Of a DNA stretch of 64,000 nt, positions 1 to 17,835 are shown in pieces (the first letter of the stretch is position 1; every line of letters starts with the position of its first letter). Made by a program: the position numbers and the translations under genes. The notes beneath the pieces are model-generated. The model made no database searches, was not told where the DNA came from, and saw nothing but the letters and a program-made list of their open reading frames with translations. Source of the stretch: Candidatus Eiseniibacteriota bacterium (GTDB lineage Bacteria; Eisenbacteria; RBG-16-71-46; JABDJR01). The stretch is taken from NCBI GenBank assembly GCA_963783375.1, contig CAWANH010000029.1:1152001-1216000 (forward strand), written 5' to 3'.

Positions 1-3000
1 GGGATCGGTGGGCTGACCCTCACCAACTCCGATGTCGACGCCTTGCACAACGGGAACAAGACGTTCGTCCTCTACGCCAGCAACTGCATCTCGGCGGCAT
101 TCGATTACAACTGCATCGGCGAACGTTTCCTGCTCAACCCGAACGGGGGCTCCGTCGCCGTCCTCGGATCCACCCGGGAGAGCTTCGCGGACACCCAGAC
201 CGGCTGGATCCGCCAGTTCTACTCCCTGCTCTTCCGGCAAAAGGTGCTGGATCTGGGAAGGGCCGCGGGGTTGACCAAGGTGCCCTTCATCGGCGCGTCC
301 AACTACGACGGTCCGCAGCGCTGGTCCGAGATGAGCCAGATCTACCTGGGGGACCCCAGCCTGTCCTACTGGCTCCTGGCTCCCGATTCGCTGGTGGTTT
401 CCCACTCCCCGACCTTCTCCCTCGGACAGGGAACGTTCACCGTCGGGGTCGCCCGGAACGGATCCCCGGCGGCGGGGGCGCGGGTGGCCCTGGTGAAGGA
501 CGGCGACGACTACGGGGCGGGCCTCACCGACGCGTTCGGCCAGGCGGTGGTGGCCTTCCATCCCGATATTCCCGGAACGGTGTCGGTGGGCGTATTCGAC
601 GAAGGCGCCCTGCCGTCCTTCGGAACGGCTCAGGTCGTAGCTCCGCCGGGGGCGTTCCTCTTCGCCCAGAGCCAGGAGGTCGACGACGATCAGACCGCGC
701 CCTCCTGGGGGAACGGCGATGGGGAATTCGACGCCGGCGAGACGGTGGAACTTTGGCTCACCATCGGTAACTCCGGCACCACCGCCACCGGTGCGTTCAG
801 CGCCTCCCTCTCCAACTCCGACCCCTACCTGACGGTGGGAGACGGAGCCTCGTCCTTCGGCTCCATCGCGGCGGGGGCTACGGGCTTGGCCCTCGATCCC
901 ATGGTCATCACCGTGGAACGCGGCTTCGGCGGGAAGCACGAAGCGCACGTGAGCCTGACCCTGTCCGGGCCCTCGGGGATCTTCATCCAGGACATCATCT
1001 TCTATCTCCACGGACCGGAGTACGAGTACCTCACCCAAACGATCAGGGACACGGTGGGAAACGGAAACGGCAACGGGTCGATCGAGCCTTCCGAGGATTT
1101 CTCCGTGATCCCCGAACTCGGAAACACCGGCCTGGGCGAGGCCTATCAGGTGACCGCCCGGCTTCGCTCCATCGATCCCGGGGTGACGATCACGGATTCG
1201 ATGAGCGTGATCGGCAACATCGCGCCCGGGACGACCGGCTCGAACCCCGCGGACGGATTCGTCCTCCGGCTGAACGATCCCGCTGCGGCCCACTCGATCT
1301 CGGTCGTAGTGGTCGACGCCTACGGCGAGGAGTCGACCTGGCCGGTGGAGTTCACCCCACCCGGCCCGGTGAGCGGTCTATTGGCATTCGGCGGAGCCAA
1401 TTCCATCGCTCTCGAGTGGACCCAGCCCGCGGATTCCGACCTGCGGAGCTACCTCGTATACCGGGCGCCGACCCCCTCCGGACCGTTCACCCGAGTGAAT
1501 TCCCGGATCAACGAACGAAGCGCGGTTTACGTGGACGAGTCCCTCTCTTCCCTGACCCGATTCTCCTACCGGGTGGCCGCGTTGGACTCCTCCGGCAACC
1601 AGGGTCCGTTATCCCCGGTGATCTCGGCCACGACCTCCCTCGCCATGCACGCGGGTTGGCCGGTGGAGGTCAAGACCGCCACGGTGGGAGGGGTGAGCCT
1701 GGCGCGGCTTGACGGCGCCGGGACTCCGGAAATCCTCGCCGGCGGGGAAGAGCTGTACGCCCTGACCGCCGATGGCGGCGAATACACCGACGGCGACCAC
1801 AGCAGCTCGACCCTGGGGCCGCTCACTCAAACCACGTCGACCGGGTTCTGGAATACGCCCTGTTCGGGCGACGCCCTGCATACCGGATACCAGGTGGTTG
1901 CCGCCGCGGGCTGGTCCGACTACCTCCTTCACGTCGTGGACCGCTTCGGCGCCGAACTTGCCGGGTGGCCCAAGAACATCGACGTGAACGGAACCGGCTC
2001 GATCAACCCCATCGGATCGCCGGCCATGGAGGATCTGGACGGCGACGGCCTGATGGAGATCACGATCACCGCGGGCAGGTGCATCTTCGCCTGGCACGCC
2101 GACGGCACCGAGCTCCGGGATGGGGATTCGAACCCCGCCACCGACGGCGTCCTGGCGGAGACCGGGACGCTCTATTCCTACGGCACCCCGAGCATTGCGG
2201 ACATCGACGGAAACGGCTCCCGAGAGATCATCGCCGGCATGCGGGACGGGAAGCTCTACGTCTTCAACGCGGACGGAACCCCCTATCCCGGGTTCCCATA
2301 CGTCACCGGGGGCGACATCACCATGGGTCCGGCGATAGGCGACATCGACGGGGACGGCCGGCAAGAGATCGTGTTCGGCTCCGGCGTCGACGCCAAGCTC
2401 TACGCCGTCCGCTATGACGGATCTTCCGCCGCCGGGTTTCCGGTGTCGTTGGCATTGAGCGGGGATTGGGATTCTTCCCCCGCCCTGGCCGACCTGAACG
2501 GGGACACCTATCCGGACGTGGTGGTCGGCGGATCCAGCGGCGGTGTCTATGCATTCAGCGGGGTGAACGGGTCCCCCCTCCCCGGCTTCCCCTTCCCCTT
2601 CACCGATGCCATGGGCAACCCGGTGAGCGTCCTCAGCTCCCCCGTGGTGGTCGATCTGGACGGGGATGGCGACCTCGATCTCGTGGTTGCCGATCATAGG
2701 GGCCGGGTGCACGCGATCTCGAGCACGGGGACCGAGTTACCGGGATTCCCGATCCAGACCGGCAACGCCACCGACACCACTCCCCTGGTCTGGGACGTGG
2801 ACGGAGACGGGCTGAGCGAGGTTCTGATCCAGTCCCTGGACCAGAGGGTCTATTGCTGGGACACGCCGTGGACCTTCGACGCGGCCCGCGCCCCCTGGCC
2901 CATGTTCAAGCACGACGAGCGCCACACCGGATGGGCGACCGATGAGATCCTCCAGGTTCTCGCCACCCCCTCCACCCCGGTCGCCGGGAGCGCCCTGCTC

Positions 3001-3273
3001 CAGCAGAACGCCCCCAACCCCTTCCGCGGCTCCACGGTGATCCGGTATCGAATCCCGGAGGGAGCCACCTACCAGAGCGTCAGGCTCCGGGTTTTCGACC
3101 TGAACGGACGGGTGGTGCGGAGCCTGATCGACGGGGAACAGCCTCCTGGCTCCTACTCGGCGTCCTGGGACGGGAGGGACGGCCGCGGGGTCCCGGTGGC
3201 CTCTGGGATCTACCTGTATCGTCTGGAGGCGGCGGGAAGGGCCCTATCCCGAAAGCTGGTCGTTCTCCAGTAG
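1..3273 (+). CDS. C25 (gingipain-like) cysteine peptidase with Ig/FN3 domains, FG-GAP repeats and C-terminal FlgD-Ig/T9SS-like domain; 5' truncated by window edge
   Basis: Frame open from base 1; NCISAAFD (catalytic Cys region) and YLGDP of C25; FN3-like LEWTQP..YLVYRA; repeated DLDGDG/DIDGDG; C-terminal QNAPNPF...WDGRD..G..VASGIYLYRL. Confidence 0.8.
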   Translation, partial: GIGGLTLTNSDVDALHNGNKTFVLYASNCISAAFDYNCIGERFLLNPNGGSVAVLGSTRESFADTQTGWIRQFYSLLFRQKVLDLGRAAGLTKVPFIGASNYDGPQRWSEMSQIYLGDPSLSYWLLAPDSLVVSHSPTFSLGQGTFTVGVARNGSPAAGARVALVKDGDDYGAGLTDAFGQAVVAFHPDIPGTVSVGVFDEGALPSFGTAQVVAPPGAFLFAQSQEVDDDQTAPSWGNGDGEFDAGETVELWLTIGNSGTTATGAFSASLSNSDPYLTVGDGASSFGSIAAGATGLALDPMVITVERGFGGKHEAHVSLTLSGPSGIFIQDIIFYLHGPEYEYLTQTIRDTVGNGNGNGSIEPSEDFSVIPELGNTGLGEAYQVTARLRSIDPGVTITDSMSVIGNIAPGTTGSNPADGFVLRLNDPAAAHSISVVVVDAYGEESTWPVEFTPPGPVSGLLAFGGANSIALEWTQPADSDLRSYLVYRAPTPSGPFTRVNSRINERSAVYVDESLSSLTRFSYRVAALDSSGNQGPLSPVISATTSLAMHAGWPVEVKTATVGGVSLARLDGAGTPEILAGGEELYALTADGGEYTDGDHSSSTLGPLTQTTSTGFWNTPCSGDALHTGYQVVAAAGWSDYLLHVVDRFGAELAGWPKNIDVNGTGSINPIGSPAMEDLDGDGLMEITITAGRCIFAWHADGTELRDGDSNPATDGVLAETGTLYSYGTPSIADIDGNGSREIIAGMRDGKLYVFNADGTPYPGFPYVTGGDITMGPAIGDIDGDGRQEIVFGSGVDAKLYAVRYDGSSAAGFPVSLALSGDWDSSPALADLNGDTYPDVVVGGSSGGVYAFSGVNGSPLPGFPFPFTDAMGNPVSVLSSPVVVDLDGDGDLDLVVADHRGRVHAISSTGTELPGFPIQTGNATDTTPLVWDVDGDGLSEVLIQSLDQRVYCWDTPWTFDAARAPWPMFKHDERHTGWATDEILQVLATPSTPVAGSALLQQNAPNPFRGSTVIRYRIPEGATYQSVRLRVFDLNGRVVRSLIDGEQPPGSYSASWDGRDGRGVPVASGIYLYRLEAAGRALSRKLVVLQ

Positions 3274-5514
3274 CGCTTGGTCGATCGAGGATACGCTTTC
3301 CGGGCCCCCGAACACCCGCCCGATCTGAACCGTGATGTTGTCGGGGCCTCCCCGGCTCCGGGCCAATTCCACCAGCCTCCGACAGGCTCCGCCGGGAGGA
3401 TCGGACATGACCACGTCCCGGATTTCCTCCTCGCTCACCACCTCCCAGAGCCCGTCCGAGCAGAGGAAGACCACGTCGCCGTCCGTCAGGCAAACCGGTT
3501 CGGGCGAGGCCTCCACCTCCAGTTCCTCTTTCTCTCCCAGACAGCGGGTCAGGATGTGACTCGGGATCATCGGTGACGGGCCGTCGTCCCCCGACGTCCG
3601 TCGCATCTCGGCGGCGAGATTGTGATCGCTGGTCAGTTGGGTGATCTCTCTCCTCGAGACCAGGTAGGCCCGGGTGTCCCCAACATGGGCCACGTACAGG
3701 TCGAGGCCGTGGAAGACCGCGGCGGTACAGGTGGTTCCCATCCCTCCCAGGCGATGACTCCCCGCCGCCCGGGCGTGGATCCTCTGATTGGCCCGATTCA
3801 TGGACTCCACCAGGGCGGCTCGCGGTCCCCCCTCGAGCATCAACGCGAAGTAGTCCGACGCGAATGCCTCGACCGCCATCCGGCTCGCCACCTCTCCCGC
3901 CGCCGCCCCCCCCATGCCGTCGGCCAGCACGAGAAGTCCTCCCGGAATATCCGCGCAGCCGGCCACGATGCCGAACGCGTCTTCGTTGTTGGCGCGCACG
4001 CATCCCCGGTCGGTTCGGGCCGCTGCTTCCAGGCGCAGGTTGCCGTCCTCGCTCAGGTACAGGGTCGCTTCCTCGGCCCGATTGTCGGGTTCGGGGAGTT
4101 CCAGCTCCGGAATCGCCGAGGATCCGTCGCCGCTTCCCCACTTCTCGGGAACCGCGATCTTGAATCCCCGCCGCTCCAGGTGGGCCTCCACCGCCCGCGA
4201 GGCGATTTCCCCCCGCGCGTACTTCTCCAGCTCCTCTTCCCCCAGCTCGACGAAGAGGGCGTCTTCGGAGTACAGGTCGATCAGGGCCTCCACCACGTCC
4301 GGGAAGAACTGGGAGCCGGCATGGGCGAGGAGTTCCTCGAAGGCGGCTTCGGGGGATAGGCCGCGCCGGTAGGGACGGTCCGAGGTCATGGCGTCGAAGG
4401 CGGCGGCGGCCATGATGATGCGGCTTCCCACCGGGATGGCGTCTCCCGACAGACCCCGTGGATAGCCGCGGCCGTCGGGCTGCTCGTGGTGGCAGTAGAC
4501 GATATCCGCGGTCTCCGGGAAGAATCTGAACCTCCGGATCATCTCGGCCCCGATGCGGGGGTGGGTCCTGAGAAGCGACTGCTCCGATTCGTCGAGCCGT
4601 CCCGGCTTGTCCAGAACCTCACGCTGGATGACGTTGCGGCCGATGTCGTGGAGAAGCGAGGCGTACTGGATGCCCTCGATTTCCCGGACGGGAAGCCCGA
4701 GGCGCCTTGCCACCGCGGTGGACATCGTGGACACCCGGAGACAGTGGCCCCGGGTGAATGGGTCGGTCGCGTCCACCTCGGACATGAGTTCACGGACCGA
4801 GGTGAGGTGGGTCCGCTTCGACTCCCGCCAGAGCTTCATGGCGTAACGGGTGACCAGGAGCGGAATCAGGAAGAGCGCCGAGCCCATCGGGCCGATCCGG
4901 ATCTGGGTGAGGGCGAGCAGGACCCCGAAAGGGAGGAGCAGGGCCTGGAACGCGCCCTCCGAAGCAATCGTACCGAACCCGGACTCACGCAGGCGTTTCG
5001 GGGACTGAAGCCCGAGGCCGACGGCGGAGAGAGTTCCCCAGGTCAAGAGATAGGCCGCGGCGGCGGCGACGAGAGACCCCACTTCACCGGGGTCGATGAA
5101 CAGGTCCGCTCCCGTCCTCCCCCCCATACCGACGTACACCGTCCCCGCCGCGCCAACCACCAACGCCGCCCGGCCCAAGCGGGCGATGCTCTTGGCCATG
5201 GGGTTCCATTTCTCGGCGATATTGGAGACCAGTCGGGCGTACACCGCGACCCAGCACGCGGTAAGGGGGCCGAAGACCAGGAGCGCGGCCAGATCCAGGG
5301 CCGCGGTGAGCCGCACGGTGCCGGAGCCGCGGGGGAGCGGGACCGGCGACATCGCCGCCACCGAGATCATGGCCAGCCACAGGATGAGGGTCGAAGTCGT
5401 ACCGGCGGCGCGCTCCACCTCCCCGGCCCCTGCCCCCATCGCGGCCAGCACGACGATGCCGGCGCCCAGGAGGGCCAGAGCGAAGAATCGGTACTTCAAG
5501 CTGGTGTGCATCAC
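3244..5514 (-). CDS. Multi-TM sensor + HD-GYP phosphodiesterase + PP2C Ser/Thr phosphatase fusion
   Basis: About 220 aa hydrophobic N-terminus; LHDIG and HHEQPDGRGYPRGL; PP2C motifs RANNED, ADGMGG, CSDGL, GGPDNIT. Confidence 0.85.
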   Translation of the reverse strand: MMHTSLKYRFFALALLGAGIVVLAAMGAGAGEVERAAGTTSTLILWLAMISVAAMSPVPLPRGSGTVRLTAALDLAALLVFGPLTACWVAVYARLVSNIAEKWNPMAKSIARLGRAALVVGAAGTVYVGMGGRTGADLFIDPGEVGSLVAAAAAYLLTWGTLSAVGLGLQSPKRLRESGFGTIASEGAFQALLLPFGVLLALTQIRIGPMGSALFLIPLLVTRYAMKLWRESKRTHLTSVRELMSEVDATDPFTRGHCLRVSTMSTAVARRLGLPVREIEGIQYASLLHDIGRNVIQREVLDKPGRLDESEQSLLRTHPRIGAEMIRRFRFFPETADIVYCHHEQPDGRGYPRGLSGDAIPVGSRIIMAAAAFDAMTSDRPYRRGLSPEAAFEELLAHAGSQFFPDVVEALIDLYSEDALFVELGEEELEKYARGEIASRAVEAHLERRGFKIAVPEKWGSGDGSSAIPELELPEPDNRAEEATLYLSEDGNLRLEAAARTDRGCVRANNEDAFGIVAGCADIPGGLLVLADGMGGAAAGEVASRMAVEAFASDYFALMLEGGPRAALVESMNRANQRIHARAAGSHRLGGMGTTCTAAVFHGLDLYVAHVGDTRAYLVSRREITQLTSDHNLAAEMRRTSGDDGPSPMIPSHILTRCLGEKEELEVEASPEPVCLTDGDVVFLCSDGLWEVVSEEEIRDVVMSDPPGGACRRLVELARSRGGPDNITVQIGRVFGGPESVSSIDQALLENDQLSG

Positions 5515-5742
5515 GGGGATACGTCCTCCCTGTTCGGTCCCACGGAACCCGGACCTTTCATCCTCCTGTCATCGGCTCCTGGGCCTCGCGGCTGAAGCCT
5601 GGAAAGGGGGCAGGACCCCCTCAAGGCGGGCCCCCAGGGAGCCGAAAACCCGAGAACAAGGTCCGGTCAGGCCGGGCCGTACGGCCCCGGGCCGATCCCC
5701 CCGGGCTTCGGGGCCATCCCTTGCCAATGGAGAGCCCTATCC

Positions 5743-7005
5743 ATGAGCGACGGCACCCATCGGAATCCGGCCGGGCCCGATCGGCAATCCTCGGGGGATT
5801 CGGACCGCATTTCGGTTCTTCACTCTCAATCGGTGTCGCGATTTTCCATGCTCCAGTCCGATCTGGTGGGGCTGGATACCCGAATGGCCGACCTGTTCCT
5901 CCGGTTCGCCACTCGGACCAGCGCGGCCCGGAACGACGAGTCCCGGCTCATGTCGGTGATCGGCGAGTTCACCTTCCAGGCCTTCCCGCGAGCCACTCAC
6001 CTGGTCGTGGCCCTGAGCGAACCCGGCGAGAGTGACGTCCGTCCCCTGGTCGCGGTGTCCCGAACCGGAGACGAGCCGGAGGTAAAGCTCAGCACCACCC
6101 TGATGCGCCGGGTGATCGAGGACGGCGTCGCCCTGCTCTACACGCCGGCGCAGTCCGGCTCCGAGTCCTCCACGAGCATCACCCTCTCCCGGATCCAAAC
6201 CGCCTTGTGCGCCCCCCTGTTCAGCATCGAGGATCCCTTCGGGGTGATTCAGCTCGACGTCCGCCATCCGGCCACCGGCACCTTCACCCGCAAGGACGTG
6301 GACCGGATCATCGTCTTCGCCCATCACGTGGCGCTGGTGCTGGACAATCTCCGGCTCTATCAGGAGCAACGCCGGGCCTTCGAGTCTACGATCCGGGCGC
6401 TGGTGCACTCGCTCTCCCTGAAGGATCCCGACACCGCCCATCACTCCGAACGGGTCCAGACCCTGGCCGTTCTGATCGGAGCGGAGATGGGGCTTCGCGG
6501 AAACGACCTGGAATCGCTGGGAGTGGCCGCGGTTCTCCACGACATGGGAAAGCAAGGGATCCGGGACGAAGTGCTGCTCAAGCCCGCCCGCCTGTCCAGC
6601 GTGGAGAGGGAGGAGATGTCCCGCCACTCCGAACTCACCCAGAACGTCCTCGACAAGATCGCCTATCCCCAGCACCTGCGTGACGTGCCCCTCTACGCCG
6701 CCTATCACCACGAAAAGATGAACGGCACCGGGCCCTATCGCATTCCCGGGGAGGAAATCCCCATCCAGGCCCGAATCATCTCGGTGGCCGACGTCTTCGA
6801 CGCCTTGTTCTCGGCTCGGGTGTACAAGGAGCCCAAACCGGTGGAGGAGGTGCTGGCCATCCTGGAGCGCGGCAAGGGGAAGGAATGGGACGCCCGGGTG
6901 GTGGATGCCGTCCGGGCCCTCGCCCCCCGCCTCCTGGCCCGGGTATACGACGCCTCGCCGGCGCCCCGGGGATCGGACGGGATTCCGGGCCGTCAGGCGG
7001 CCTGA
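5743..7005 (+). CDS. GAF + HD-GYP domain protein
   Basis: GAF ALCAPL...GVIQLD; HSERV, LHDMGK, HHEKMNGTGPY, VADVFDAL..RVYK. Confidence 0.85.
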   Translation: MSDGTHRNPAGPDRQSSGDSDRISVLHSQSVSRFSMLQSDLVGLDTRMADLFLRFATRTSAARNDESRLMSVIGEFTFQAFPRATHLVVALSEPGESDVRPLVAVSRTGDEPEVKLSTTLMRRVIEDGVALLYTPAQSGSESSTSITLSRIQTALCAPLFSIEDPFGVIQLDVRHPATGTFTRKDVDRIIVFAHHVALVLDNLRLYQEQRRAFESTIRALVHSLSLKDPDTAHHSERVQTLAVLIGAEMGLRGNDLESLGVAAVLHDMGKQGIRDEVLLKPARLSSVEREEMSRHSELTQNVLDKIAYPQHLRDVPLYAAYHHEKMNGTGPYRIPGEEIPIQARIISVADVFDALFSARVYKEPKPVEEVLAILERGKGKEWDARVVDAVRALAPRLLARVYDASPAPRGSDGIPGRQAA

Positions 7006-7035
7006 TCCCCCCCCGGATGCGCCGGCCGCCGGGAA

Positions 7036-8106
7036 TCAGGCCGCTTCGGCGCGGGCCAGCGAACGCTCGAACTGGCTGGGGTCGATGGCGTGGTCGTAGG
7101 CCTCCTCGCCGGTGATGACGCCCTTCCGCACCAGCTCCCGGAGTTCGGCGTCCAGGCTCTGCATGCCGATCCCGCGTCCGGCCTGGATCACCGAGGTCAA
7201 CTTGTGGCCGTTCCCCGCGCGAATCATCGAGGCGGCCGCGGGGTTGTTGACCAGGATCTCGGCCACCGCCAGCCGTCCCGAACCGTCCGCTCGGCTCACC
7301 AGTTGCTGGGAGATAACCATGCGCAGGCTTTCGGCCAGCATGCTCCGGATCTGCTCCTGGCGGCGGGCCGGAAACACGTTCACGATCCGGTCGATGCTTC
7401 GCGAGGCCCCGCTGGTGTGGAGGCTCCCCAGGACCTGGATCCCGGTCTCCGCCGCGGTGAGAGCCAGGGCGATGGTCTCGACGTCTCGCAGCTCCCCCAC
7501 CAGGATCACGTCGGGGTCCTCGCGGATCGCGTGGCGAAGCGCTTCCGAGAAATCGGGAGCGTGAACCCCGATCTCGCGCTGGGTGACCAGGGAAAGCCGG
7601 TACCCGTGAACGAACTCGATCGGGTCCTCCACCGTGATCACATGCCCCTTCCGGGTGGCGTTGATCTCGTTCACCATGGCGGCCAGGGTGGTCGACTTCC
7701 CGCACCCGGTGGGTCCGGTGGCCAGGGTAAGGCCCTTGGGCTGGGAACAGATCAGCTTGAGCACGGCGGGGAGCCCCAGGTCGTCCAGCACCGGCACCTG
7801 GGCCGGGATCACCCGGAGCGCGACGCCCAGGCCTTTCTGGTGGCGATAGGCGTTGACCCGGAACCGTCCCAGTTCCTGAACCTCGTAGCCGAAATCCACC
7901 GAGAGATGCCGGGCGAGCCGCTCCCGCTGCGCCTCGGTGGTGAACTCCTCCAGTACCCGCTCCATGTCCTCCACCGAGAGCTCGCGGAACCTCACCTTGT
8001 GGAGCACGCCGTTGATGCGAATGCGGGGGGACTGGCCCGAAATCATGTGGAGGTCCGAGCCTCCCTGCTTCACCGCCAGCTCCAGGAAGGTGTTGATCCG
8101 GCTCAT
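7036..8106 (-). CDS. pilT: PilT/PilU-family type IV pilus ATPase (copy 2)
   Basis: SDLH, GRFRVN, Walker A GPTGCGKSTT, EDPIEF, REDPDVILVGELRD, GSLHT. Confidence 0.9.
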   Translation of the reverse strand: MSRINTFLELAVKQGGSDLHMISGQSPRIRINGVLHKVRFRELSVEDMERVLEEFTTEAQRERLARHLSVDFGYEVQELGRFRVNAYRHQKGLGVALRVIPAQVPVLDDLGLPAVLKLICSQPKGLTLATGPTGCGKSTTLAAMVNEINATRKGHVITVEDPIEFVHGYRLSLVTQREIGVHAPDFSEALRHAIREDPDVILVGELRDVETIALALTAAETGIQVLGSLHTSGASRSIDRIVNVFPARRQEQIRSMLAESLRMVISQQLVSRADGSGRLAVAEILVNNPAAASMIRAGNGHKLTSVIQAGRGIGMQSLDAELRELVRKGVITGEEAYDHAIDPSQFERSLARAEAA

Positions 8107-8119
8107 CGGTTCACCTCGC

Positions 8120-9247
8120 TCATGCCGCGTCTTCCTTCCCGGCGACGTCCGGCGCCGCTCCGCCGCCCCCGAACAGACTCTTGAGCTCGGGCCGGGTGAC
8201 GAACCGGGTAAACTCCCGCTTGTCGTTGGCCAGGATGAACGCCTCGTCGGGATCGATGTTCCCGGCCTGGACCATGCTCAACAGGGCCTGGTCCATGAGC
8301 TGCATCCCCGCCCGCCGTCCGGTCGCGATCACGCCGGGAATCTGGAAGGTCTTTCCCTCGCGGATGAGCTGGGACACCGCCGCGTTCACCACCAGGATCT
8401 CGCAGACCGCTCGTCGTCCCCGCCCGTCGGAAACCCGCACCAGCTCCTGGCTCACCACGCACTTCAGGTTCTCGGCCAGGGTGTGACGGATCTGGGACTG
8501 GACCTCGGCGGGAAAGGAATCCACGATGCGGTGGATGGTCTGGTAGGCGCCCCGGGTGTGGAGCGTCCCCAGAACCAGGTGTCCGGTCTCCGAGGCCTCG
8601 ATGGCCAGCGAGATCGTCTCGAAGTCCCGGAGCTCCCCCACCAGGATCACGTCGGGATCCTCCCGCAACCCGGCCCGCAAACCGTCGTGGAACGTGTGCA
8701 CGTGGGTTCCCACCTCACGCTGGACGATGAGCGCCATCTTGCTCTCGTGGACGAACTCGATCGGCTCCTCAAGGGTGAGGATGGTCACGTTGCGGGTGCG
8801 GTTGATCTCTTCGATGATCGAGGCCAAGGTGGTGGACTTTCCGGTCCCCGACCCTCCGGTGACCAGCACCAACCCCGCGTTCAGACCGGTGAATCGGGAG
8901 ATCACGTTGGGGAGCCCCAGGTCGGCGAGGGCCGGCGCATGATCGGGAACCACCCGGCAGATGATGGCGAGCCCGGTCCGATGGCGGCAGACGTTGACCC
9001 GGAAGCGGCCCACGTCCTGGGCGGTGTAGGAGAGGTCCACCGCTCCCTTGACCCCGAGAGCGTCCCAATGCTCGGGGCCAAGAATCTCGCCGGCCAGCCC
9101 GTCGATCTCCGCCGCCTCCAGCTCCCGGTGATCGAGCGAGAGCAGCTCTCCGTCCAGGCGGACGAGGGGGGCGCGCCCCGCGGTCAGGTGGATGTCCGAA
9201 CAGCCCTGCTCCCGGCCGAGCCGGAGGAAGCCATCGATTTCAGGCAT
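8120..9247 (-). CDS. pilT: PilT/PilU-family type IV pilus ATPase (copy 1)
   Basis: SDIH, Walker A GGSGTGKSTT, EEPIEF, REDPDVILVGELRD, GTLHT; ATG 9247 with GGAGG RBS, overlapping kinase stop. Confidence 0.9.
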   Translation of the reverse strand: MPEIDGFLRLGREQGCSDIHLTAGRAPLVRLDGELLSLDHRELEAAEIDGLAGEILGPEHWDALGVKGAVDLSYTAQDVGRFRVNVCRHRTGLAIICRVVPDHAPALADLGLPNVISRFTGLNAGLVLVTGGSGTGKSTTLASIIEEINRTRNVTILTLEEPIEFVHESKMALIVQREVGTHVHTFHDGLRAGLREDPDVILVGELRDFETISLAIEASETGHLVLGTLHTRGAYQTIHRIVDSFPAEVQSQIRHTLAENLKCVVSQELVRVSDGRGRRAVCEILVVNAAVSQLIREGKTFQIPGVIATGRRAGMQLMDQALLSMVQAGNIDPDEAFILANDKREFTRFVTRPELKSLFGGGGAAPDVAGKEDAA

Positions 9248-11657
9248 GTCGCCTCCGAGGTTCGAGTGGGGAGGCATCGAGGAGATCCCGGATCCTCTCT
9301 CCCAGTTCCGCCGCGCTCCCGATGCGTTCGTCCGGTTCGCGGGCCATGGCCGCCGCGGTAAGGGCCTCGATTTCCGGCGGCACCCCCTCGGAAAGCTCGC
9401 TCATGGGCCGCGCCTCCCCTTCGAGGTGCTGGAAGAGGATCTTGACCGGGGTTTCGGCGGTGAACGGGGGCCGCCCGGTGATCATCTCGTAGAGGACGAT
9501 GCCCAGGCCGTACACGTCGACCCGGTGATCGGCTTCCTCGCCGCGGATCTGCTCGGGGGCCATGTACTCGGGGGTCCCGATCAGGAGCCCGCTCTTGGTG
9601 AGCCGGGACCCGACCCTCTGCTCGGCCCACGCCAGGCCGAAGTCCACGATCTTCACCTCGTCGTCCACTCCCACCAGGATGTTCCCGGGCTTGATGTCCC
9701 GGTGCACCACCCCCGCCTCGTGGGCCGCGACCAGACCGTCGCAGGCCTGCGCCAGAATGCCGAGCGAACGCCAGGGATCGAGCTTCCCCGCCTCGGTCAG
9801 GACCTTCCCCAGGTCTCGCCCCGGGAAATACTCCATGGACACCGCGTGCGCGCCGCCCAGATCGATCAGGTCGTAGATGCGGATCACGTTCCGGTGGGTG
9901 ATCTTCCGGGTGAGCTTCAGCTCCTGCACGAAACGACGGATGGCCCCTTCATCCTCGGAGAGGTGGGAGTTCAGGATCTTGAAGATGATGCGGTCCTGGA
10001 CCGCGGTGTCCTCGACCAGGTAGATGGCTCCGAACCCTCCCCGACCGATCCGCTGGACCACGCGATACCGGTTGAGTAGCTCCATCCCCGGGGACAGCTC
10101 GCGGAAGTTGGTGGAGGGGTCCTTGTCCGCCTCGGGGCGTCGCGCCCCGGGGGGAACCGATCCGATGGCCGCGAACGGCGAATCCCCCGAACCCGCGGTC
10201 ACCGGGAACGGCAGGCCCGTTCCGGAACCCTGGTGTCGCTTGCCTTCGACCTGGAGCGGCATGTCGGCGCGCGCCTCGGACTCGGGGCCGATCCGGGCCG
10301 CCCCCAGGGCGTCGTTCACCCGGCGTCGTTCCTCCGCGTCGAGGTCGGCGCTGGAGAGCAGCTTCAGGGCGGAAGCGGCTTCGCGCCGGATCTCCTCGCT
10401 CTCGGACTTCGCGAGCCGGCTCAGGGGCTCCAGCGCCCGGGGATCGCCGATCGCGCCCAGGGCGCGGGCGCAGAGCGGAGCCACCGTCGAATCGGCGGCC
10501 ATCAGATCCATGAGCGGCTCCACCGCGCGCGTATCGCGGGTGCGGGCCAGGGCGTCGATCGACCGTTCCCGGACCCACCAGTCGGAGTCGCCCAGGGCCC
10601 GGATCAAGGGCTCCACCGCGCGCGCGCTGGGAATCGCGTTCAGGATCTCCACCGCGTACCGGCGAACGAACTCGTCCTCTTCTCCGAGCAGGCCGAGCAC
10701 CGCTTCCACCACCCGCTCCCCTCCCAGGCTCCCCAAGGCGTCGGCGGCTCGCACCCGCACCCACCAGTCCTCGTCCCGGAGCGCCCGCACCAGGTCCTGG
10801 ACCGCCTCGGTGGTGGCCACCTCGTTCAGGACCTCCACCGCGGCCCGGCGGGAGTACTCGGACTCGTCCTTCAGGATCTCCAGGAGGTACGGCACCGCGG
10901 AGGAGTCTCCAAGCTCGATCACCGCGTCGATGACCTCGGTCTGCACCTTGAGATCCTCGTCCCGGAGCGCCCGCACCAGATCGCCGATCTGCGAACGCGC
11001 TTCCATCTGGCGGAGCGACCGCACCGCTTCCAGACGGACGCTCTTGTGCTCGTCCTGGAGCGTGGCAATCAGGGCGGGAGCCACCCGTTCGGCGTCGAAC
11101 CGGGCCAGGAGCTTCACCATGTAGAGGCGGATCCACCAGTCCTCGTGGCGGAGGAGTTCGACCATGGGAGCCAGCACGGACTCGTCCGCGTTTCGCTCCA
11201 GGAGCCGAAACACCACCCCCCGGGCCTCCTTGCTGAGACCGGGCAGGACCGCCACCAGCTTTCGCGGGGGCATGTGCGGAGCCTGCGCGGTGAGGATTCC
11301 CTCCAGTACCCCCCTGGGCAAGGTGCGGTCGGCGAGGAGATCGATGAGCCGCTCGGGATCGTACCCCCGGCCCCGCTCCAGTACCTGGGCCACCCCGGAA
11401 ACCACGGCGGGGTTCGGGGAAGAGAGGGCATCCAGATAGGCGGGCAGGGTCTCGTCTTCGAGAAGGCGGGCGAGGATCTCCTGGGCGGGTCCGCGAGCTT
11501 CACCGTGGCTCAGGCAGTCCAGGACGCGAGGAAGCGTGGGCGCGCCCAAAGCCACCAGGTCCTCTTGGGCCCGGCCCAGCGCCGCGGGAGAGACGGAGCG
11601 GGAGACCTTGAGCCTCCGAACGCACCGTCCCGCTCTGAACTCATTGAGCAGGTTCAT
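9240..11657 (-). CDS. HEAT-repeat protein with C-terminal Hanks-type Ser/Thr kinase
   Basis: Repeats such as LRDEDWWVRVRAADALG; kinase GRGGFG, HRDIKPGN, DFG, GTPEYMAPE, DVYGLG. Confidence 0.9.
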   Translation of the reverse strand: MNLLNEFRAGRCVRRLKVSRSVSPAALGRAQEDLVALGAPTLPRVLDCLSHGEARGPAQEILARLLEDETLPAYLDALSSPNPAVVSGVAQVLERGRGYDPERLIDLLADRTLPRGVLEGILTAQAPHMPPRKLVAVLPGLSKEARGVVFRLLERNADESVLAPMVELLRHEDWWIRLYMVKLLARFDAERVAPALIATLQDEHKSVRLEAVRSLRQMEARSQIGDLVRALRDEDLKVQTEVIDAVIELGDSSAVPYLLEILKDESEYSRRAAVEVLNEVATTEAVQDLVRALRDEDWWVRVRAADALGSLGGERVVEAVLGLLGEEDEFVRRYAVEILNAIPSARAVEPLIRALGDSDWWVRERSIDALARTRDTRAVEPLMDLMAADSTVAPLCARALGAIGDPRALEPLSRLAKSESEEIRREAASALKLLSSADLDAEERRRVNDALGAARIGPESEARADMPLQVEGKRHQGSGTGLPFPVTAGSGDSPFAAIGSVPPGARRPEADKDPSTNFRELSPGMELLNRYRVVQRIGRGGFGAIYLVEDTAVQDRIIFKILNSHLSEDEGAIRRFVQELKLTRKITHRNVIRIYDLIDLGGAHAVSMEYFPGRDLGKVLTEAGKLDPWRSLGILAQACDGLVAAHEAGVVHRDIKPGNILVGVDDEVKIVDFGLAWAEQRVGSRLTKSGLLIGTPEYMAPEQIRGEEADHRVDVYGLGIVLYEMITGRPPFTAETPVKILFQHLEGEARPMSELSEGVPPEIEALTAAAMAREPDERIGSAAELGERIRDLLDASPLEPRRRHA

Positions 11658-11721
11658 CCGCGATCATCCTCGCGAGTCGACGGGTCGGCCCGCGGCGGGT
11701 GAAGGGCCGACCCGGCCGGGA

Positions 11722-12333
11722 TCAACCCCGGCCCAGGAACCACAGACCGGCCCCACCCACCAGCACCCCCACCAGGAAGGAGATGATCAGGAGGAGCGTT
11801 ACGGCGGCGTTCGAGAACCCGGTTCGCACGGTCTGCGCGGACATGGAGGCCGGCCTCTCGGTCCCGTCCTGCTCGCGATACTCCGAAGCCAGGTTCTCGA
11901 GTTCCACGGTGGAGAGCACGGTGGTGCCCTGAAAGGCGGTGGGGGTCAACTGCCGCGTGTCCCCCGCCTGGTGGCCGCGGCGTTCGTCCTCGTAGCTGAT
12001 CCAGAGGGAGAACTTCCCGATGTGCAGAACGTCGTTCTCCATCAGGACTTCGCGCTTTGCCTGGATCATCTTCTCGTTCAGGACGGTGCCGTTGGCGCTC
12101 CCCAGATCCTCGGCCTCGTAGTAGCCCCGGGGGACGGCGTGGAGCCGCAAGTGGTGGCGGGACACCCCGGGATTGTCCAGAAAGACATCGCTGTCCGGGT
12201 CCCGACCCACCGTGACCATCTCCTGTTTGAAACGATAGGAGCGGATCGGCCTCCCCTTCAGGGAGAGCCGCACCTTGAGAACCTTGGTTCCCGGCTGAGG
12301 GGCTCCGTCGCTTACGTGTTCGGGCAGTCCCAT
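11722..12333 (-). CDS. FHA-domain protein with C-terminal transmembrane anchor
   Basis: VGRDPDSDVFLDNPGVSRHH, DLGSANGT; hydrophobic C-terminus; AAGGAGG upstream of ATG 12333. Confidence 0.85.
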   Translation of the reverse strand: MGLPEHVSDGAPQPGTKVLKVRLSLKGRPIRSYRFKQEMVTVGRDPDSDVFLDNPGVSRHHLRLHAVPRGYYEAEDLGSANGTVLNEKMIQAKREVLMENDVLHIGKFSLWISYEDERRGHQAGDTRQLTPTAFQGTTVLSTVELENLASEYREQDGTERPASMSAQTVRTGFSNAAVTLLLIISFLVGVLVGGAGLWFLGRG

Positions 12334-12691
12334 CGTGTCCACGCCTCCTTCCTGCGCGCGAGGTTCGATACGCCTCGTGTCGTTATCGGCACGCCGGATA
12401 TGGGGTTTAAGGCCGCGAGGCGTCGGCGGGGCAACGGGGACGGCTCGCGGGGTGGGGGGACGGGCCTATCGGCTTATCCGGCAAGAAGTTGGAGCTTTCG
12501 AGGACCTCCGGCCGCTCCCCGAGACCCCGACGTGGACGCCGGCGCGCCGCCCATCGGGCAAAGGGATTTGCGTTATCCACCGCATTTCGCCCGGCCGCGG
12601 GTGCTTAATCAAGTGGGCTCATGGCGATGGGGTCGCCCGCGGAGGCAGGCGGCCAGCCGGTTTCTCGTGGAAGGCGGAGGCGGGGAGTTCG

Positions 12692-15600
12692 ATGGACGAG
12701 GCTCTCGGGCGGGAAGGCCGATCTTCTCCGGAGCCCTCCTCCGGGGCGGCGGGGGGAGACGGCGCCCGGGCGCGGGCGATCGCCGACCAGTTCGAGGTCG
12801 CCCTGGGCTGCCCCGATGCGGTGACCGCGGCCCTGGCCGGAATCCTGGCGGGGACCGGTACCCTGCCCACCGGGCGCGAGAAGACGCTCCTCGGCCTGGC
12901 TCCCCTGCTTCGGCGGCGCACCGGGGCGGTGGCCGCCGCGCTCTTCGACGGTCTGTCCTCCGCCCTGGACCGCCTCCCCGATCCCCGGCCGCTCCTTCTG
13001 GAACTTCTTCGCACCCGGGATCCCGAACTGCTTTCCCGCGCGCTCGCCCACACGGAACGCCTGGTCGCGGCGAAGGCCGTTCATCCGGACCGCCGACTGC
13101 TGGCCTTCTTCGCCGAGCGATTCGAGGAACGCGGCGGGCTTTGGGAGCGCCCCGAGACCCTGAATCGCGTGGCCGAACTGGTGGAATCCTCCGGCCCTTC
13201 TCCGCCCTGGACCGATTTGCTGACCGATCCCGCCGACCCCGGTAGCGCCCGGTTGGCCGCGCGAGCCCTCGACCGGCACGGGGAACCCGCCCCCCCCGGG
13301 GTCGCCCGGCGGATCCTCGGGGAGGTGGCCTACGCATTTCTCGCCCCCTACCTGGCCTACACCCGGGCCGGCCATGCCGATCTCCTGGCCCTGGTCCCCC
13401 GCCCCGGCGCCCCGCCGCCGGCGCTCGCCGCCCTCCGCCGGGCGGCCGAGCGATGCGGCGAGAGCGCCCTCCGGGACATCGTGGCCCGGTTGGGCTGGCC
13501 GGCCGTGAACCTGGGGCTCGAGGCGGGGCCGGTATGGGAGGTCTCGCTGGCGGGAGCCTTCCCGTACCTGATGTCCCCGGAAGAAGCGCCGCTCCTCGAA
13601 GCGGTGGGCGAGACCCGGAAACACGGCGAGGCGATCCTCGCGGTGGCTCACGGCGGAGCGCCCGACCCCGGACGGGAGGGGCCGGGAGCCGAGGACCCGG
13701 TGGCCCGCTTTCGGGCCATGAACCTGGTCCACGCCGAGCTTCTGGCCGAGATCCTCGACGTCTCCCCCCTCACCCCGGAGAAGGTGCGCCGGATCCTCGG
13801 TGGGATGGACCGGATCGTCGCCGATTTCGTCGGAGTCTTCGCCCGCCACGCCGAGGACGAGGCGGCGGCGCTCCCCGGTCTCTACGCCGCACTCAAGGGT
13901 CGGGTCGAGGCGGAGCTCACCCCCGAGTCCCGCCCCGCCCAGCTCTCTGCCGAACTCACCCGGCTGGTCCAGGCCTTCGAAGACCCCCAAAGCCTCGCCG
14001 AGGTTCGCACCCTCCACGGCCTCAAGCGCTACCTCCACCAGCGGGGCCTCCGCCTGGGGTTCCGCCTGGTCGAGGCCGGACGCGCCACCAACCGGAGCGT
14101 CCGGGTTCTGGTGCTTCGGCCCCGGCGGGAGCCGCCGTCCCCGGTCGTCCTTCGCTACGTGGATTTCGAGCCCGGGGACTACGCGCCGGACTCCGCCCCC
14201 CCGGTTCCCTATCCGGTTCGGGCCCTGGCCGAAGGGATTTCCCGGCAGCTCCTTGTGGGAACATTGGAGTTTCCTGACGTTAAAATATTTTGCTATGGCA
14301 ACGAGGTCCACTACTACCTCGCTTTCGGCACCCATCCCGCGTTCCTCCGGGTGGACTACGCGCCGCCGCTCCGGGGGGGCATGGTCGACCTCGAGTACTA
14401 CGGGGTGAGCAAGGTGGATCTGGGGGCGCATCCCGACCCCAGCCTGGCCGGTATCCGCCTCCTCCTCGAACGGCTCGATTTCGACGTCACCATCGACGCC
14501 ACCCGGGTCCATGCCCGCTACGACAAGGAGCGGGCGCTGGATCTCGGAGAGCTGTGCGAGCACGCCGAGGCCCTCCTCCGTCTCCTCCCCCACGTGATGG
14601 ACGTGGACTGGACGATCGGGTCGCTCCGGCTCTCGCCGGCGGCGCGGTGCGCGACCGCGGAGGCCTGGGCGGAGTTCTTCCTGCGCTGGGGGTCGCTTCC
14701 GGTCGAGCGCTTCCTCACCGACGACCGGGTGGGGATCACCACCGGGCGGGAGACGGGCCCGGCCGGAGACCGCGAAACGGTGTGGGACGGCCGGGGGCCC
14801 TACCGCGACCGGTACCGCCCCGCCCCCGCGGCCCGGGATTTCCTGCCGCTGGTGGAGAGCCTGGGGGCCGGGGGCCGGGCGATTGCCGCGGAACTGGAGT
14901 CGGCGGGGGGTGAACCGATGGGGCAACTCGCCCTGGAGCGGCTCGTGCTCCGCCCGCTCCACGAGGCGGCGGGAGAACCCTCCGCCGGGGCCACGCACTC
15001 CGGGAGGCGACCCGGCGGCCCGCCTCCCCACGAGGCCGAGCGATTCGCACACATCCTGGAGGGAGGCGTGGAGCCGGTCGCCGCCGCGGCGCGCGCGGCG
15101 GCCCTGGTCGCCCCGCTCACCCGAAGCCTCCGCTTCCGGACCACCGGGTCGGTGGAGGGTTTTGCCACCCAGCACGCGGTGGTTCCCCTTCGAGGGGCCC
15201 GCCTGGACGCACACGTGCTCCGCGATCCCTCGGGGCTGATCCGCCTCGCCTACTTCACCGGAGTCGGAAGAGACGGCCGGCGGAGGCTCGGGGGAGTGGG
15301 GTGGCCCGGCGAAGCCGGTCCGGAGGAGGGAACCGCGATCACCGGAGAAGGGACCGGCGCCGGCGATCCGGGGCTCGACGCCGCGCGCCTGGCCGCCCTC
15401 CTCCGGCGAAACAGCTACCCCGTGGTCGAGACCGGGGGGAGCGATTCGGAGGTGGAAGCCGAAGCCCGTGAAACGCTCGCCGCGGTCGGGCGCTCCGCCC
15501 ACCTCCCCCGTCCCCGACCCATCCCCGGAGAGCGATTGGTCACCGGGCTCCGCGCTTCCCCCGGCCGCGCGGTGGGGCGGGCGGTTCTCGATGCGGCGGG

Positions 15601-17835
15601 CCGGACCCCCGAATCGCTTCGCGGCGCGGTGCTGGTCGCCGCTTCCGTCCGTCCCGAGGACACGGTGTTCTTGTTTCACGCGGCGGGGGTGGTCTCCACC
15701 GGGGGCGGGATCCTGAGCCACGCCGGCCTCACCGCGGTGCAGTTTCGAAAACCCGCGCTGGTGATCTCCGGCCGCTGGGAAATGCGCCCGGACGGCGTTC
15801 GCGTGCTCTGGTACCGGGTCACGAGCTGGCGGCCGGAGATCCGCACCGTGGCCGGCTTCGAGATCGAGATGCGCCGGGATCTCCGGGAGAGCGAGCACGC
15901 CCTGGCCGAAGGGGATCTGGTGGTGGTGGACGCCGAGTCGGGAAGGCTCCGGGTGCTGGGGCAGGATCGCGAGGTCCTGGCCCTGACCGAGGATCTGGCC
16001 GAGTTGGGCGAGGCCCACCGCCTTCTGGCCGGCGCCCGGGACGAGCGGGAGATTCTGGCCCTTCGCGGGCGGCGGCTCAGGGCCCGTCACCAACTGTTGA
16101 AGCTCCTGGGGCGACTCCACGATCCGATCCCGGCCCGGCACGCGGTGGAGGAAATCCTGAGCGGGGTTTCCCTGGCCACCGGAGCGGGGGCGCGGGAAGA
16201 GAAGGGACCGCTCCTCATCGCCCTTCTGGCCAACCCCTTCACCGGGGGCGCGGCGCGCGACGCGCTCCTGGCGCTCACCCGCGGGCTGGCCCGGCGGGTG
16301 GCCGTGCGGGCCGCCGAAGCGGTGCGACGGCTTCCCACCGCCGACACCCTCTTCGAGATCCTGGCCCAGCGCCTCGGCCTGGTCCGGGTCCAAAGCGCCC
16401 TGGAGGAAGCGACGGCGGCGCTCACCGCCTGCGGTCTCCCCCCCGAGTCGGCCGAACCCGCCTTCGATCTCGCCGCTTTCGACGTGGGCGCGCGGGAGCG
16501 GCTCCTGGCCATCCGAAGCGAGCAGCTCCGTGCGGTGACTGGATCCGACGCCGGCGGCCCCCGGCTCCGCCATCACCTCCGACGGCTCCGCCGGCTGGAC
16601 GCGGTGCTCGACGTCCCCGAGGCCGACCGGCGGGACGTCACCGCGCTCGACCGGGCGCTGGCCCGCCGCGACCGGGCGGTGCGGACGGGATGCCAGGGGC
16701 GCCAGGTCCTCCTCCCCGCCGAGTGCGGTTTCGAGATGAACCCCCTGATCGGCTGGAAGGCGGCGAACCTGGCCGAGGTGGAGCGGCTGATCGGACCGGA
16801 CCGGGTGCCCCGCTGGTTCGTGGTGACCCACGGCTCCTTCGCGGAGATGCTCCGAAACCCCCTCCCCCGCGGGGAACCGACGAGCGAAGGACCCCGGTGG
16901 CGCTCGGGGAGGCGATCGGCGTGGTGCTGGAACGGGCCGATCTCACCCCGGGGCAGAAGTCCCTCCGCATCCACGATCTGTGGGAGAAGGCGACCCTGCC
17001 GCCGCTCCTGGTGCGGGAGGTGACCGCGGCCTATCGCGCGCTGGCCGAGGCCCCGCCGGACGCGGACCGGGGCGGGCCGCCGTCCCCGGAGACGGAGGGC
17101 GACGAGGCCGGCCTCCCCTACGTGGCCGTCCGTTCCTCCGCGCGCGAGGAGGACGCCGAAGCTGCGGCCCGGGCCGGCGAGTTCGACACCTTCCTCTACA
17201 TCCGGGGGGTGGAGCCGCTCCTCGGATTTCTGAAGCGGGCCTGGAGCGGTCTCTGGACCGAGCGGGCAATCCACAGCCGGTCGGCGTTCGGGATCGGCCT
17301 GGAGGAAATCGGAGGGGGCGTGCTCGTTCAGCGCATCGTCCCCGCCCGGGTCGCCGGGGTGCTCCAGACCGTGAACGTGGGCGAGGACGAGCACCGGGAA
17401 ATGGTGCTGAACGCCGGGCTCGGGCTCGGGGAAGGGGTGGTCTCGGGCACGGTGGGCGCGGATCACGTGGTGGTCCGGAAGGAGGGGGACCTGGAGCATG
17501 CCCCGCTCCGTTTCCGCTACGTGACCGCGGACAAGCGGGAGCGGGTGGTTTTCGACGCCCGCACCGGGTTCGGCACCGAGCGCGTCGAATCGCTCTACCA
17601 CCAACGGCTCCGCCCCGCCCTCGAATACGTGGAACTCAGGGAGCTGGTGATCACCGCCCAACGCCTGGAAGAGGCCTACGGCTACCCCCTCGACCTGGAG
17701 TTCGCGGTGGAGGGGAGCCGGACCTGGATCCTCCAGGTGCGACCGGTGGCCACCTTTCTCTCCGCCCTCAACGAGACCCTCGAGCGCCGGCCCCTCGGTT
17801 CCACGGCCGCCGCCCTCAAGGAGACGACGCCATGA
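12692..17835 (+). CDS. Large PEP-synthase/PPDK-like dikinase, order: unknown region - phospho-His swivel - ATP-grasp; frameshift at ~16890
   Basis: GGILSHAGLTAVQFRKPALV (His at 15719); IGWKAANLAE then, in next frame, AVRSSAREED, AGEFDT, GLGEGVVSG, DLEFA, ILQVRP; start codon uncertain. Confidence 0.75.

Follow-up and report, generated by a model that had tools for sequence, protein, structure and literature searches.

What are two PilT-family pilus motors doing in a run of signalling genes that contains no pilus gene? The question is raised by a 64,000-nucleotide (nt) stretch of a Candidatus Eiseniibacteriota genome (contig CAWANH010000029.1, positions 1,152,001 to 1,216,000; hereafter the window), in which genes for an FHA protein, a HEAT-repeat Ser/Thr kinase, two PilT ATPases (PilT_A and PilT_B) and two HD-GYP proteins, one of them fused to a PP2C phosphatase, lie side by side. 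The initial annotation had described this six-gene cluster as a dedicated signalling module around orphan PilTs, and searches with Pfam and TIGR01420 profiles verified all six genes with the expected domains. Comparison across loci revealed that the fixed core consists of the HEAT-repeat kinase, pilT_A and pilT_B, and that PP2C and the HD-GYPs are accessory. The claim of a dedicated module is therefore partly supported: it fits the three invariant genes and is too broad for the others.

Eisenbacteria-type loci (near loci) were compared with more diverged metagenome loci (distant loci), 71 and 40, respectively, after nine duplicates were dropped; each feature was counted solely where the flank was long enough, and related loci are not independent. 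The pilT_A gene lies directly after the kinase gene in 81/81 loci (near 55/55, distant 26/26). Both PilTs are present in 45/46 near and 23/23 distant loci, and the sole miss, L165, has both in the metagenome-scan data. On the co-occurrence in other genomes that the initial annotation had asked about, the gene neighbourhood is thus kept. In 56/59 near loci an FHA gene immediately precedes the kinase gene; in 15/20 distant loci one follows pilT_B. Furthermore, 32/34 near loci have a cyclic-nucleotide enzyme of some kind, a co-oriented HD-GYP gene occurring in 35/39 and an antisense GAF-HD-GYP gene in 18/42; the enzymes of distant loci are FHA-GAF-HD-GYP, GAF-HD-GYP, FHA-EAL or FHA-GAF-cyclase proteins, or there are none. 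PP2C was rejected as a core part, being present in a minority of loci (near 11/33, distant 2/12). Because loci without the GAF-HD gene usually have the HD-GYP(-PP2C) gene immediately behind pilT_B, the latter gene is, judged from gene order, the fifth of the operon, and the 'divergent pair' of HD-GYP genes arises from antisense insertion of the GAF-HD gene. Rearranged loci were also seen: the GAF-HD-GYP/HD-GYP block is inverted in L152, and the HD-GYP gene is relocated upstream in L127 and L128.

The kinase-PilT_A-PilT_B run is found in numerous uncultured bacteria belonging to three or more phyla, and close relatives of the kinase are those of Candidatus Eisenbacteria. Among the 201 genomes of the phylum set, the HEAT region has matches in 85 at E 1e-20, of which 63 are strong (E 3.3e-77 or better) and 22 weak or fragmentary, and the N-terminal domain of PilT_A has matches in 61. 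Kinase and PilT_A occur together in 60 of the 63 kinase-bearing genomes, adjacent in 56 and on separate contigs in four. The kinase is encoded by a single-copy gene, and its conservation across long distances is 36-66%. Its distribution is patchy (63/201 genomes), and it was not found in searched members of several families. In a Krumholzibacteriia-type phylum (that of G203), 4/121 genomes have a match, with the same gene run in the three regions examined; in the phylum of G201, matches in 7/251 genomes are partial and none is full length. The best 80 of 529 confirmed stretches in a metagenome scan included 43 distant loci, which show 36-43% identity and 35-70% GC, and the source names of their proteins, where given, are Gammaproteobacteria. 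Of 7998 candidates scored with a profile of the distant kinases, 2978 matched at E 1e-100. No cultured carrier was identified among the genomes and metagenome stretches searched. Plasmids gave three partial HEAT matches, none covering 80%, and no full-length match, and an Atlas search with the HEAT region returned generic HEAT clusters only.

The coordinates of the features are given in Table 1. The likely pilT_A start lies at 9247 (ATGCCTGA, with GGAGG upstream), at the same Met as in its homologues, and gives the 8 nt overlap with the kinase stop that had been claimed. The intergenic gaps are 64 nt (FHA-kinase) and 13 nt (pilT_A-pilT_B); pilT_B and the GAF-HD gene are convergent with a gap of 30 nt, and the two HD genes are divergent with a gap of 228 nt. 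In a random 9.1-kb stretch of the same genome (4.73 Mb, 97% complete), an HD-GYP gene is expected with a p of about 0.013; for a pilT, p is about 0.012. Given these low values and a gene order kept across phyla, the clustering is not due to chance. A promoter and terminator scan was uninformative (0 promoters; 2 terminator-like sites vs 3.7 expected). Since no terminator-like site lies between pilT_B and the GAF-HD-GYP gene, read-through antisense transcription is possible at this junction.

Table 1. Features of the module in the window (positions counted from its first nucleotide; aa, amino acids).
Feature	Position	Strand	Evidence
FHA protein with one C-terminal transmembrane helix, phosphothreonine-binding residues intact	11722..12342	-	Pfam FHA 2.4e-16; hydrophobic segment 179-197
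FHA Thr140 codon, T-x-V-L, candidate phospho-site	11923..11925	-	Thr in 55/55
Cytoplasmic HEAT-repeat (about aa 2-463) Hanks-type Ser/Thr kinase (about aa 520-795)	9240..11657	-	Pfam HEAT_2 5e-52, Pkinase 1.8e-47
PilT_A, PilT-family ATPase of own clade	8120..9247	-	TIGR01420 406.5 bits
PilT_B, PilT-family ATPase of second clade	7036..8106	-	TIGR01420 417.9 bits
GAF-HD-GYP, optional antisense insert	5743..7005	+	Pfam HD_5 2.8e-31
GAF-HD-GYP Ser24 codon, Thr/Ser-hydrophobic-hydrophobic, candidate phospho-site	5812..5814	+	
Membrane domain + degenerate HD-GYP + intact Stp1-like PP2C	3244..5514	-	Pfam HD_5, PP2C

Both PilTs exceed the TIGR01420 cut-off of 319.1 bits. A quick IQ-TREE phylogeny (midpoint root, no bootstrap), which used 88 of 138 collected PilT-family sequences, placed 24 PilT_A and 23 PilT_B rows in separate clades, each with a Shimodaira-Hasegawa-like approximate likelihood ratio (SH-aLRT) support of 99. 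The two clades and five further rows fall into one group (SH-aLRT 96) beside Gammaproteobacterial PilT (93), apart from the PilTs of pilB-pilT-pilC loci and from PilU, whose four references make up a clade of their own. A canonical PilT/PilU pair, the alternative to be checked by phylogeny, was therefore rejected on the separate clades and the invariant kinase linkage. The two clades have matching sub-branches, and the distance matrices of PilT_A, PilT_B and the kinase correlate (rho 0.84-0.89, 47 loci).

Residues were compared in Acinetobacter numbering (49 PilT_A, 48 PilT_B, 14 canonical and 4 PilU sequences). Like the PilT/PilU pairs of V. cholerae, A. baylyi and P. aeruginosa, the module's motors are tandem TIGR01420 ATPases with intact Walker A/B motifs and Asp box, and their ATPase residues are kept (K136 and E163 97/97, E204 96/97, H229 95/97), as are the arginines R82, R97, R176 and R239 (97/97). 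As in these pairs, one motor, PilT_A, has the PilU-like Walker A (GATGTGKS) and a C-terminal extension, here a conserved tail of about 12-15 residues with Thr351 in 31/38; it has H154 in 0/49. PilT_B differs from them in H222 (0/48) and in having N242 instead of D242 (48/48), an inter-subunit residue in PilT (bioRxiv 672212). At D196 and D207 both clades resemble PilT. Conservation extends to positions 2 and 53 (R2 89/97, E53 92/97), position 2 being Arg here and not the Asp of V. cholerae PilT, whose D2/E53 face binds the PilU tail (bioRxiv 2025.10.30.685630). The AIRNLIRE motif, modelled at the PilC interface in the same source, reads AVSQLIRE in PilT_A and AAASMIRA in PilT_B of the window, and R290 is mostly Ala/Ser in both clades. 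One motor per lineage retains I-R-E-x-K (near A, distant B). AIRNLIRE substitutions in V. cholerae did not abolish PilU-mediated retraction (bioRxiv 2021.10.23.465551). A clade-specific N-terminal surface is common to PilT_A and PilT_B.

The GxGxxG, catalytic Lys, alphaC Glu, HRDxKPxN, DFG and xPE elements of the kinase are invariant in 83 sequences, and its model (mean predicted local distance difference test 88.6) has a PknB-like fold with a disordered linker at 463-513. This linker has T-hydrophobic-hydrophobic in only 27/83 sequences and no conserved site. Domain, transmembrane and model analyses found no membrane segment or ligand-sensing domain in the kinase, so its input is likely a protein. 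On the reader side, the phosphothreonine-binding residues G46, R47, S61, R62, H64, N84 and G85 of the FHA domain are present in 55/55 aligned sequences. FHA domains show a preference for the residue at position +3 from the phosphothreonine. Thr140, in an otherwise variable linker after the domain, is equally invariant and is followed by Leu at +3 in 53/55, and in distant FHA proteins the Thr of EPTMF, at the equivalent place, does not vary (19/19). At the position of Ser24, 24 aligned GAF-HD-GYP sequences have Thr in 16, Ser in 3 and another residue in 5, all five being FHA-fused forms. These patterns make FHA Thr140 and the GAF-HD-GYP Thr/Ser candidate targets of the kinase.

Comparable phospho-circuits are known. 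Type VI secretion system (T6SS) clusters encode the membrane receptor kinase PpkA, the FHA reader Fha1 and the PP2C PppA with the ATPase of an envelope machine; the module has a similar kinase, FHA and PP2C set, but no T6SS gene recurs at its loci. In GarA and OdhI, the FHA domain binds the protein's own phosphothreonine. In Actinobacteria, the TPR scaffold of PknG couples a signal to phosphorylation of these FHA proteins, an arrangement shared in its cytoplasmic Hanks kinase, helical-repeat scaffold and small FHA protein with an extra-domain Thr (PMC8546545). The module differs in having HEAT instead of TPR repeats, the Thr after the FHA domain, a membrane-anchored FHA protein, and PilT ATPases and cyclic-nucleotide enzymes as partners in place of tricarboxylic acid cycle enzymes. 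Sulfolobus ArnA/ArnB likewise place FHA and phosphorylation control on a type IV filament system, the archaellum (PMC6509490); unlike the module, they modulate archaellum gene expression, with vWA partners and no dedicated PilT pair.

Only one of the two HD-GYPs looks like a working hydrolase. The GAF-HD-GYP protein has the equivalents of PmGH H189, H221, D222, K225, H276, H277, D305 and D308 in 21/21 sequences (H250 and E185 were not among the ligands counted), with the motif GP[FY] and not GYP, and FHA is fused to 7/23 homologues. The PP2C-fused domain retains GYP and RxxR (40/40); the D305 equivalent is absent in 40/40, K225 is replaced by Arg in 35/40 and H189 by Arg in 19/40. In PmGH, K225A and H189A abolish activity, D305A reduces it markedly to a still detectable level, and GYP mutations hardly reduce it (PMC4159591). 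The PP2C-fused domain is therefore called weak or inactive, as D305A alone leaves some activity, and it would probably bind cyclic diguanosine monophosphate (c-di-GMP) instead. Inactive HD-GYPs work via binding and protein contacts, and the text on them in bioRxiv 2021.11.05.467447 nowhere mentions FHA or HEAT. Of the two hydrolases originally proposed, the GAF-HD-GYP enzyme is retained, and two active HD-GYPs were rejected on the missing D305 ligand. The metal-binding motifs of PP2C are present in 12-13 of 13 fusions; the domain scores 190 bits against NF033484, below the cut-off of 230. No Pfam family matched the membrane part of the fusion at E values up to 5.

As stated in the initial annotation, family searches of the window gave no pilin, PilB, PilC or secretin match, nor one for PilM. 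The genome is not pilus-less, a possibility that was rejected: pilB, pilT, pilC, pilins, pilM and a secretin form a type IVa pilus locus at C29:168-193 kb. The PilTs are thus 'orphans' within the window alone, and since the genome encodes a complete pilus system, the missing pilus genes are no argument for a non-pilus task. A second, type IV pilus/type II secretion-like locus (pilB/gspE-pilC-pilin-pilM-secretin-pilT, C28:200169-212209) is a possible alternative docking site for the module motors; it has its own divergent pilT right behind the secretin. The genome's PilC proteins are encoded at C29:170928 and C28:209086. There are four further pilT loci, one duplicated on C15, and a degenerate PilT-like domain directly precedes an intact pilT in a stretch found on two contigs (C29:1025260-1027457, C15:7448-9486). 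GGDEF gave nine matches in this genome.

We tentatively prefer, at a little under an even chance, a reading in which the kinase is gated by an accessory pair of motors docked on the host pilus and signals onward to cyclic-nucleotide enzymes bound by FHA. (1) PilT_A and PilT_B would oligomerise together and engage PilC. (2) The HEAT repeats would bind the motors, and motor engagement or load would switch the kinase. (3) Targets of the kinase would be Thr140 in the membrane-anchored FHA protein and Ser24/Thr in GAF-HD-GYP. (4) The FHA domain would recruit the hydrolase, once phosphorylated, to the membrane, and c-di-GMP would fall. (5) PP2C would reset the circuit, possibly tuned by c-di-GMP binding to its own degenerate HD-GYP. 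This direction is favoured because the motors are invariant, the FHA-linked enzymes are variable and the most promising phospho-site candidates belong to the FHA side. The exchange of FHA-fused enzymes between loci suggests that the cyclic-nucleotide arm is the kinase output. The module likely links the cell's own pili to second-messenger signalling. A bolder version, in which the PilT pair is a mechanosensor whose heteromeric ATPase ring, on or off the pilus, activates the HEAT kinase and through FHA docking drives plug-in c-di-GMP or cyclic nucleoside monophosphate enzymes, appears doubtful.

Several observations weigh against the motor-gated kinase. The upstream FHA gene is absent from three near loci, and genome G041 has a pilT_A-pilT_B-HD-GYP copy without kinase or FHA (L281:5889-8973). 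Just 2/14 distant loci with full flanks have a cyclic-nucleotide enzyme; without the flank filter the counts are 9/43 (many short), and 6/43 for PP2C. Steps 4 and 5 are therefore not general, as most distant loci show neither enzyme. AIRNLIRE is eroded, near PilT_B lacking E295 and distant PilT_A lacking R294/E295, which on sequence grounds counts against simple PilC docking. All binding steps are conjectural. A complex prediction for HEAT 150-440 with PilT_A and PilT_B (N-terminal 149 residues omitted) scored 0.34 and the control keeping the partner and PilT_B 0.35, so it speaks neither for nor against binding. The distance correlation shows operon co-inheritance, not contact. Co-occurrence with pili discriminates nothing, as PilB is near-universal in the phylum (PilB-like genes in 195/201 genomes, 160 above the family cut-off). 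Finally, with GP[FY] replacing GYP, the substrate of GAF-HD-GYP is not certain. As a separate observation, the PilT_A of the L281 copy, a second copy, sits on a long branch.

The motors might instead be the output, the kinase phosphorylating PilT_A or PilT_B (e.g., at Thr351) to toggle an accessory retraction motor, with the c-di-GMP genes as parallel regulators. The persistence of the core without a cyclic-nucleotide enzyme in most distant loci, the conserved tail Thr of PilT_A, the catalytic residues kept in both PilTs and the split of PilU-like traits (Walker A and tail in A, N242 in B) all agree with this. On the other hand, it leaves the sensor-less kinase without an input, and it is the FHA proteins that carry the strongest of the invariant Thr sites (55/55, 19/19). 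Moreover, no precedent for PilT phosphorylation was found in Creative Commons-licensed PubMed Central and bioRxiv texts (hereafter the literature searched; subscription literature and supplements lay outside its scope). We consider this reading somewhat unlikely. More clearly unlikely is a PilT pair off the pilus, a free cytoplasmic ATPase ring acting as allosteric activator or remodeller of the HEAT kinase. The eroded AIRNLIRE, the shared N-terminal surface and the lack of pilus structural genes among recurrent neighbours of the 43 distant loci or beside the near loci examined would fit such a ring; however, one motor per lineage retains I-R-E-x-K, both motors are close to Gammaproteobacterial PilT (SH-aLRT 93), canonical pilT/pilU, too, are found away from pilus genes, and PilTs function across pilus systems (bioRxiv 2021.10.23.465551).

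A role in phage defence or stress, with the kinase and the ATPases switching off pili or the whole cell, is very improbable: despite the patchy distribution and matches of the kinase domain to PADLOC kinase models, the PADLOC matches are limited to generic kinase or PP2C domains or the P-loop, the single-copy kinase is conserved over long distances, no plasmid carries a full-length match and the neighbours are housekeeping genes. An ordinary PilT/PilU pair adjoining unrelated signalling genes is hardly credible: tandem pilT-like genes are common and both exceed the family cut-off, but neither groups with PilU or pilB-pilT-pilC PilT and the kinase linkage holds in 81/81 loci. With the readings ordered as motor to kinase, kinase to motor, free ring, defence and ordinary pair, the first two can coexist.

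All parts of the module come from known families, and the constant association of two PilT subfamilies with a HEAT kinase appears to be new to the literature: among the matches listed from the literature searched there was no description of PilT, HEAT-kinase and FHA coupling and no account of Eisenbacteria type IV pili, the nearest concerning Gemmatimonadota. The way in which pilus motors signal contact with a surface is unresolved in the field, and most additional PilT paralogues lack an explanation; in this module, two PilT subfamilies that are kept from phylum to phylum bring a kinase of their own, candidate phospho-sites and exchangeable second-messenger enzymes. If the motor-gated kinase is true, it would be a bacterial signal input without description in that literature. 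All parts but two are soluble, so the signalling direction can be tested in vitro with named residues. Annotations also need correction: the motor genes carry the bare label pilT, and a receptor is probably what one 'HD-GYP phosphodiesterase' encodes.

Distant loci have, immediately in front of the kinase gene, a conserved gene for a protein of about 155 aa (L192:1234-1725 and 31 others; 30/36 in the flank-filtered count). It was not found in near loci or in the window's own genome, where a DUF6812 search gave no match. The protein is a DUF6812-like lead (34% of one Atlas cluster; Pfam E 0.039), and DUF6812 has no mention in the literature searched. Its confident model has two beta repeats, and a fold search gave weak Hfq/Sm-like matches (best Z 4.4). 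As cyanobacterial Hfq binds PilB (PMC8092324), it may, by analogy, be a motor adaptor. At L284:5360-7992, an open reading frame that looks similar to it by eye is followed by a PilT from the sister group of A/B, with no kinase nearby.

Beyond the module, a large PEP-utiliser/PPDK_N gene (window 12335-17835) and a malic enzyme-phosphotransacetylase gene (17832-20088) are each split over two frames, as is pilM of the same genome (C29:188265-189267); these splits may be assembly indels. On the other side, window 1-3273 encodes a C25 peptidase with FG-GAP repeats and a C-terminal domain like those of the type IX secretion system, and the 3' end of its gene overlaps the end of the PP2C gene by 30 nt.

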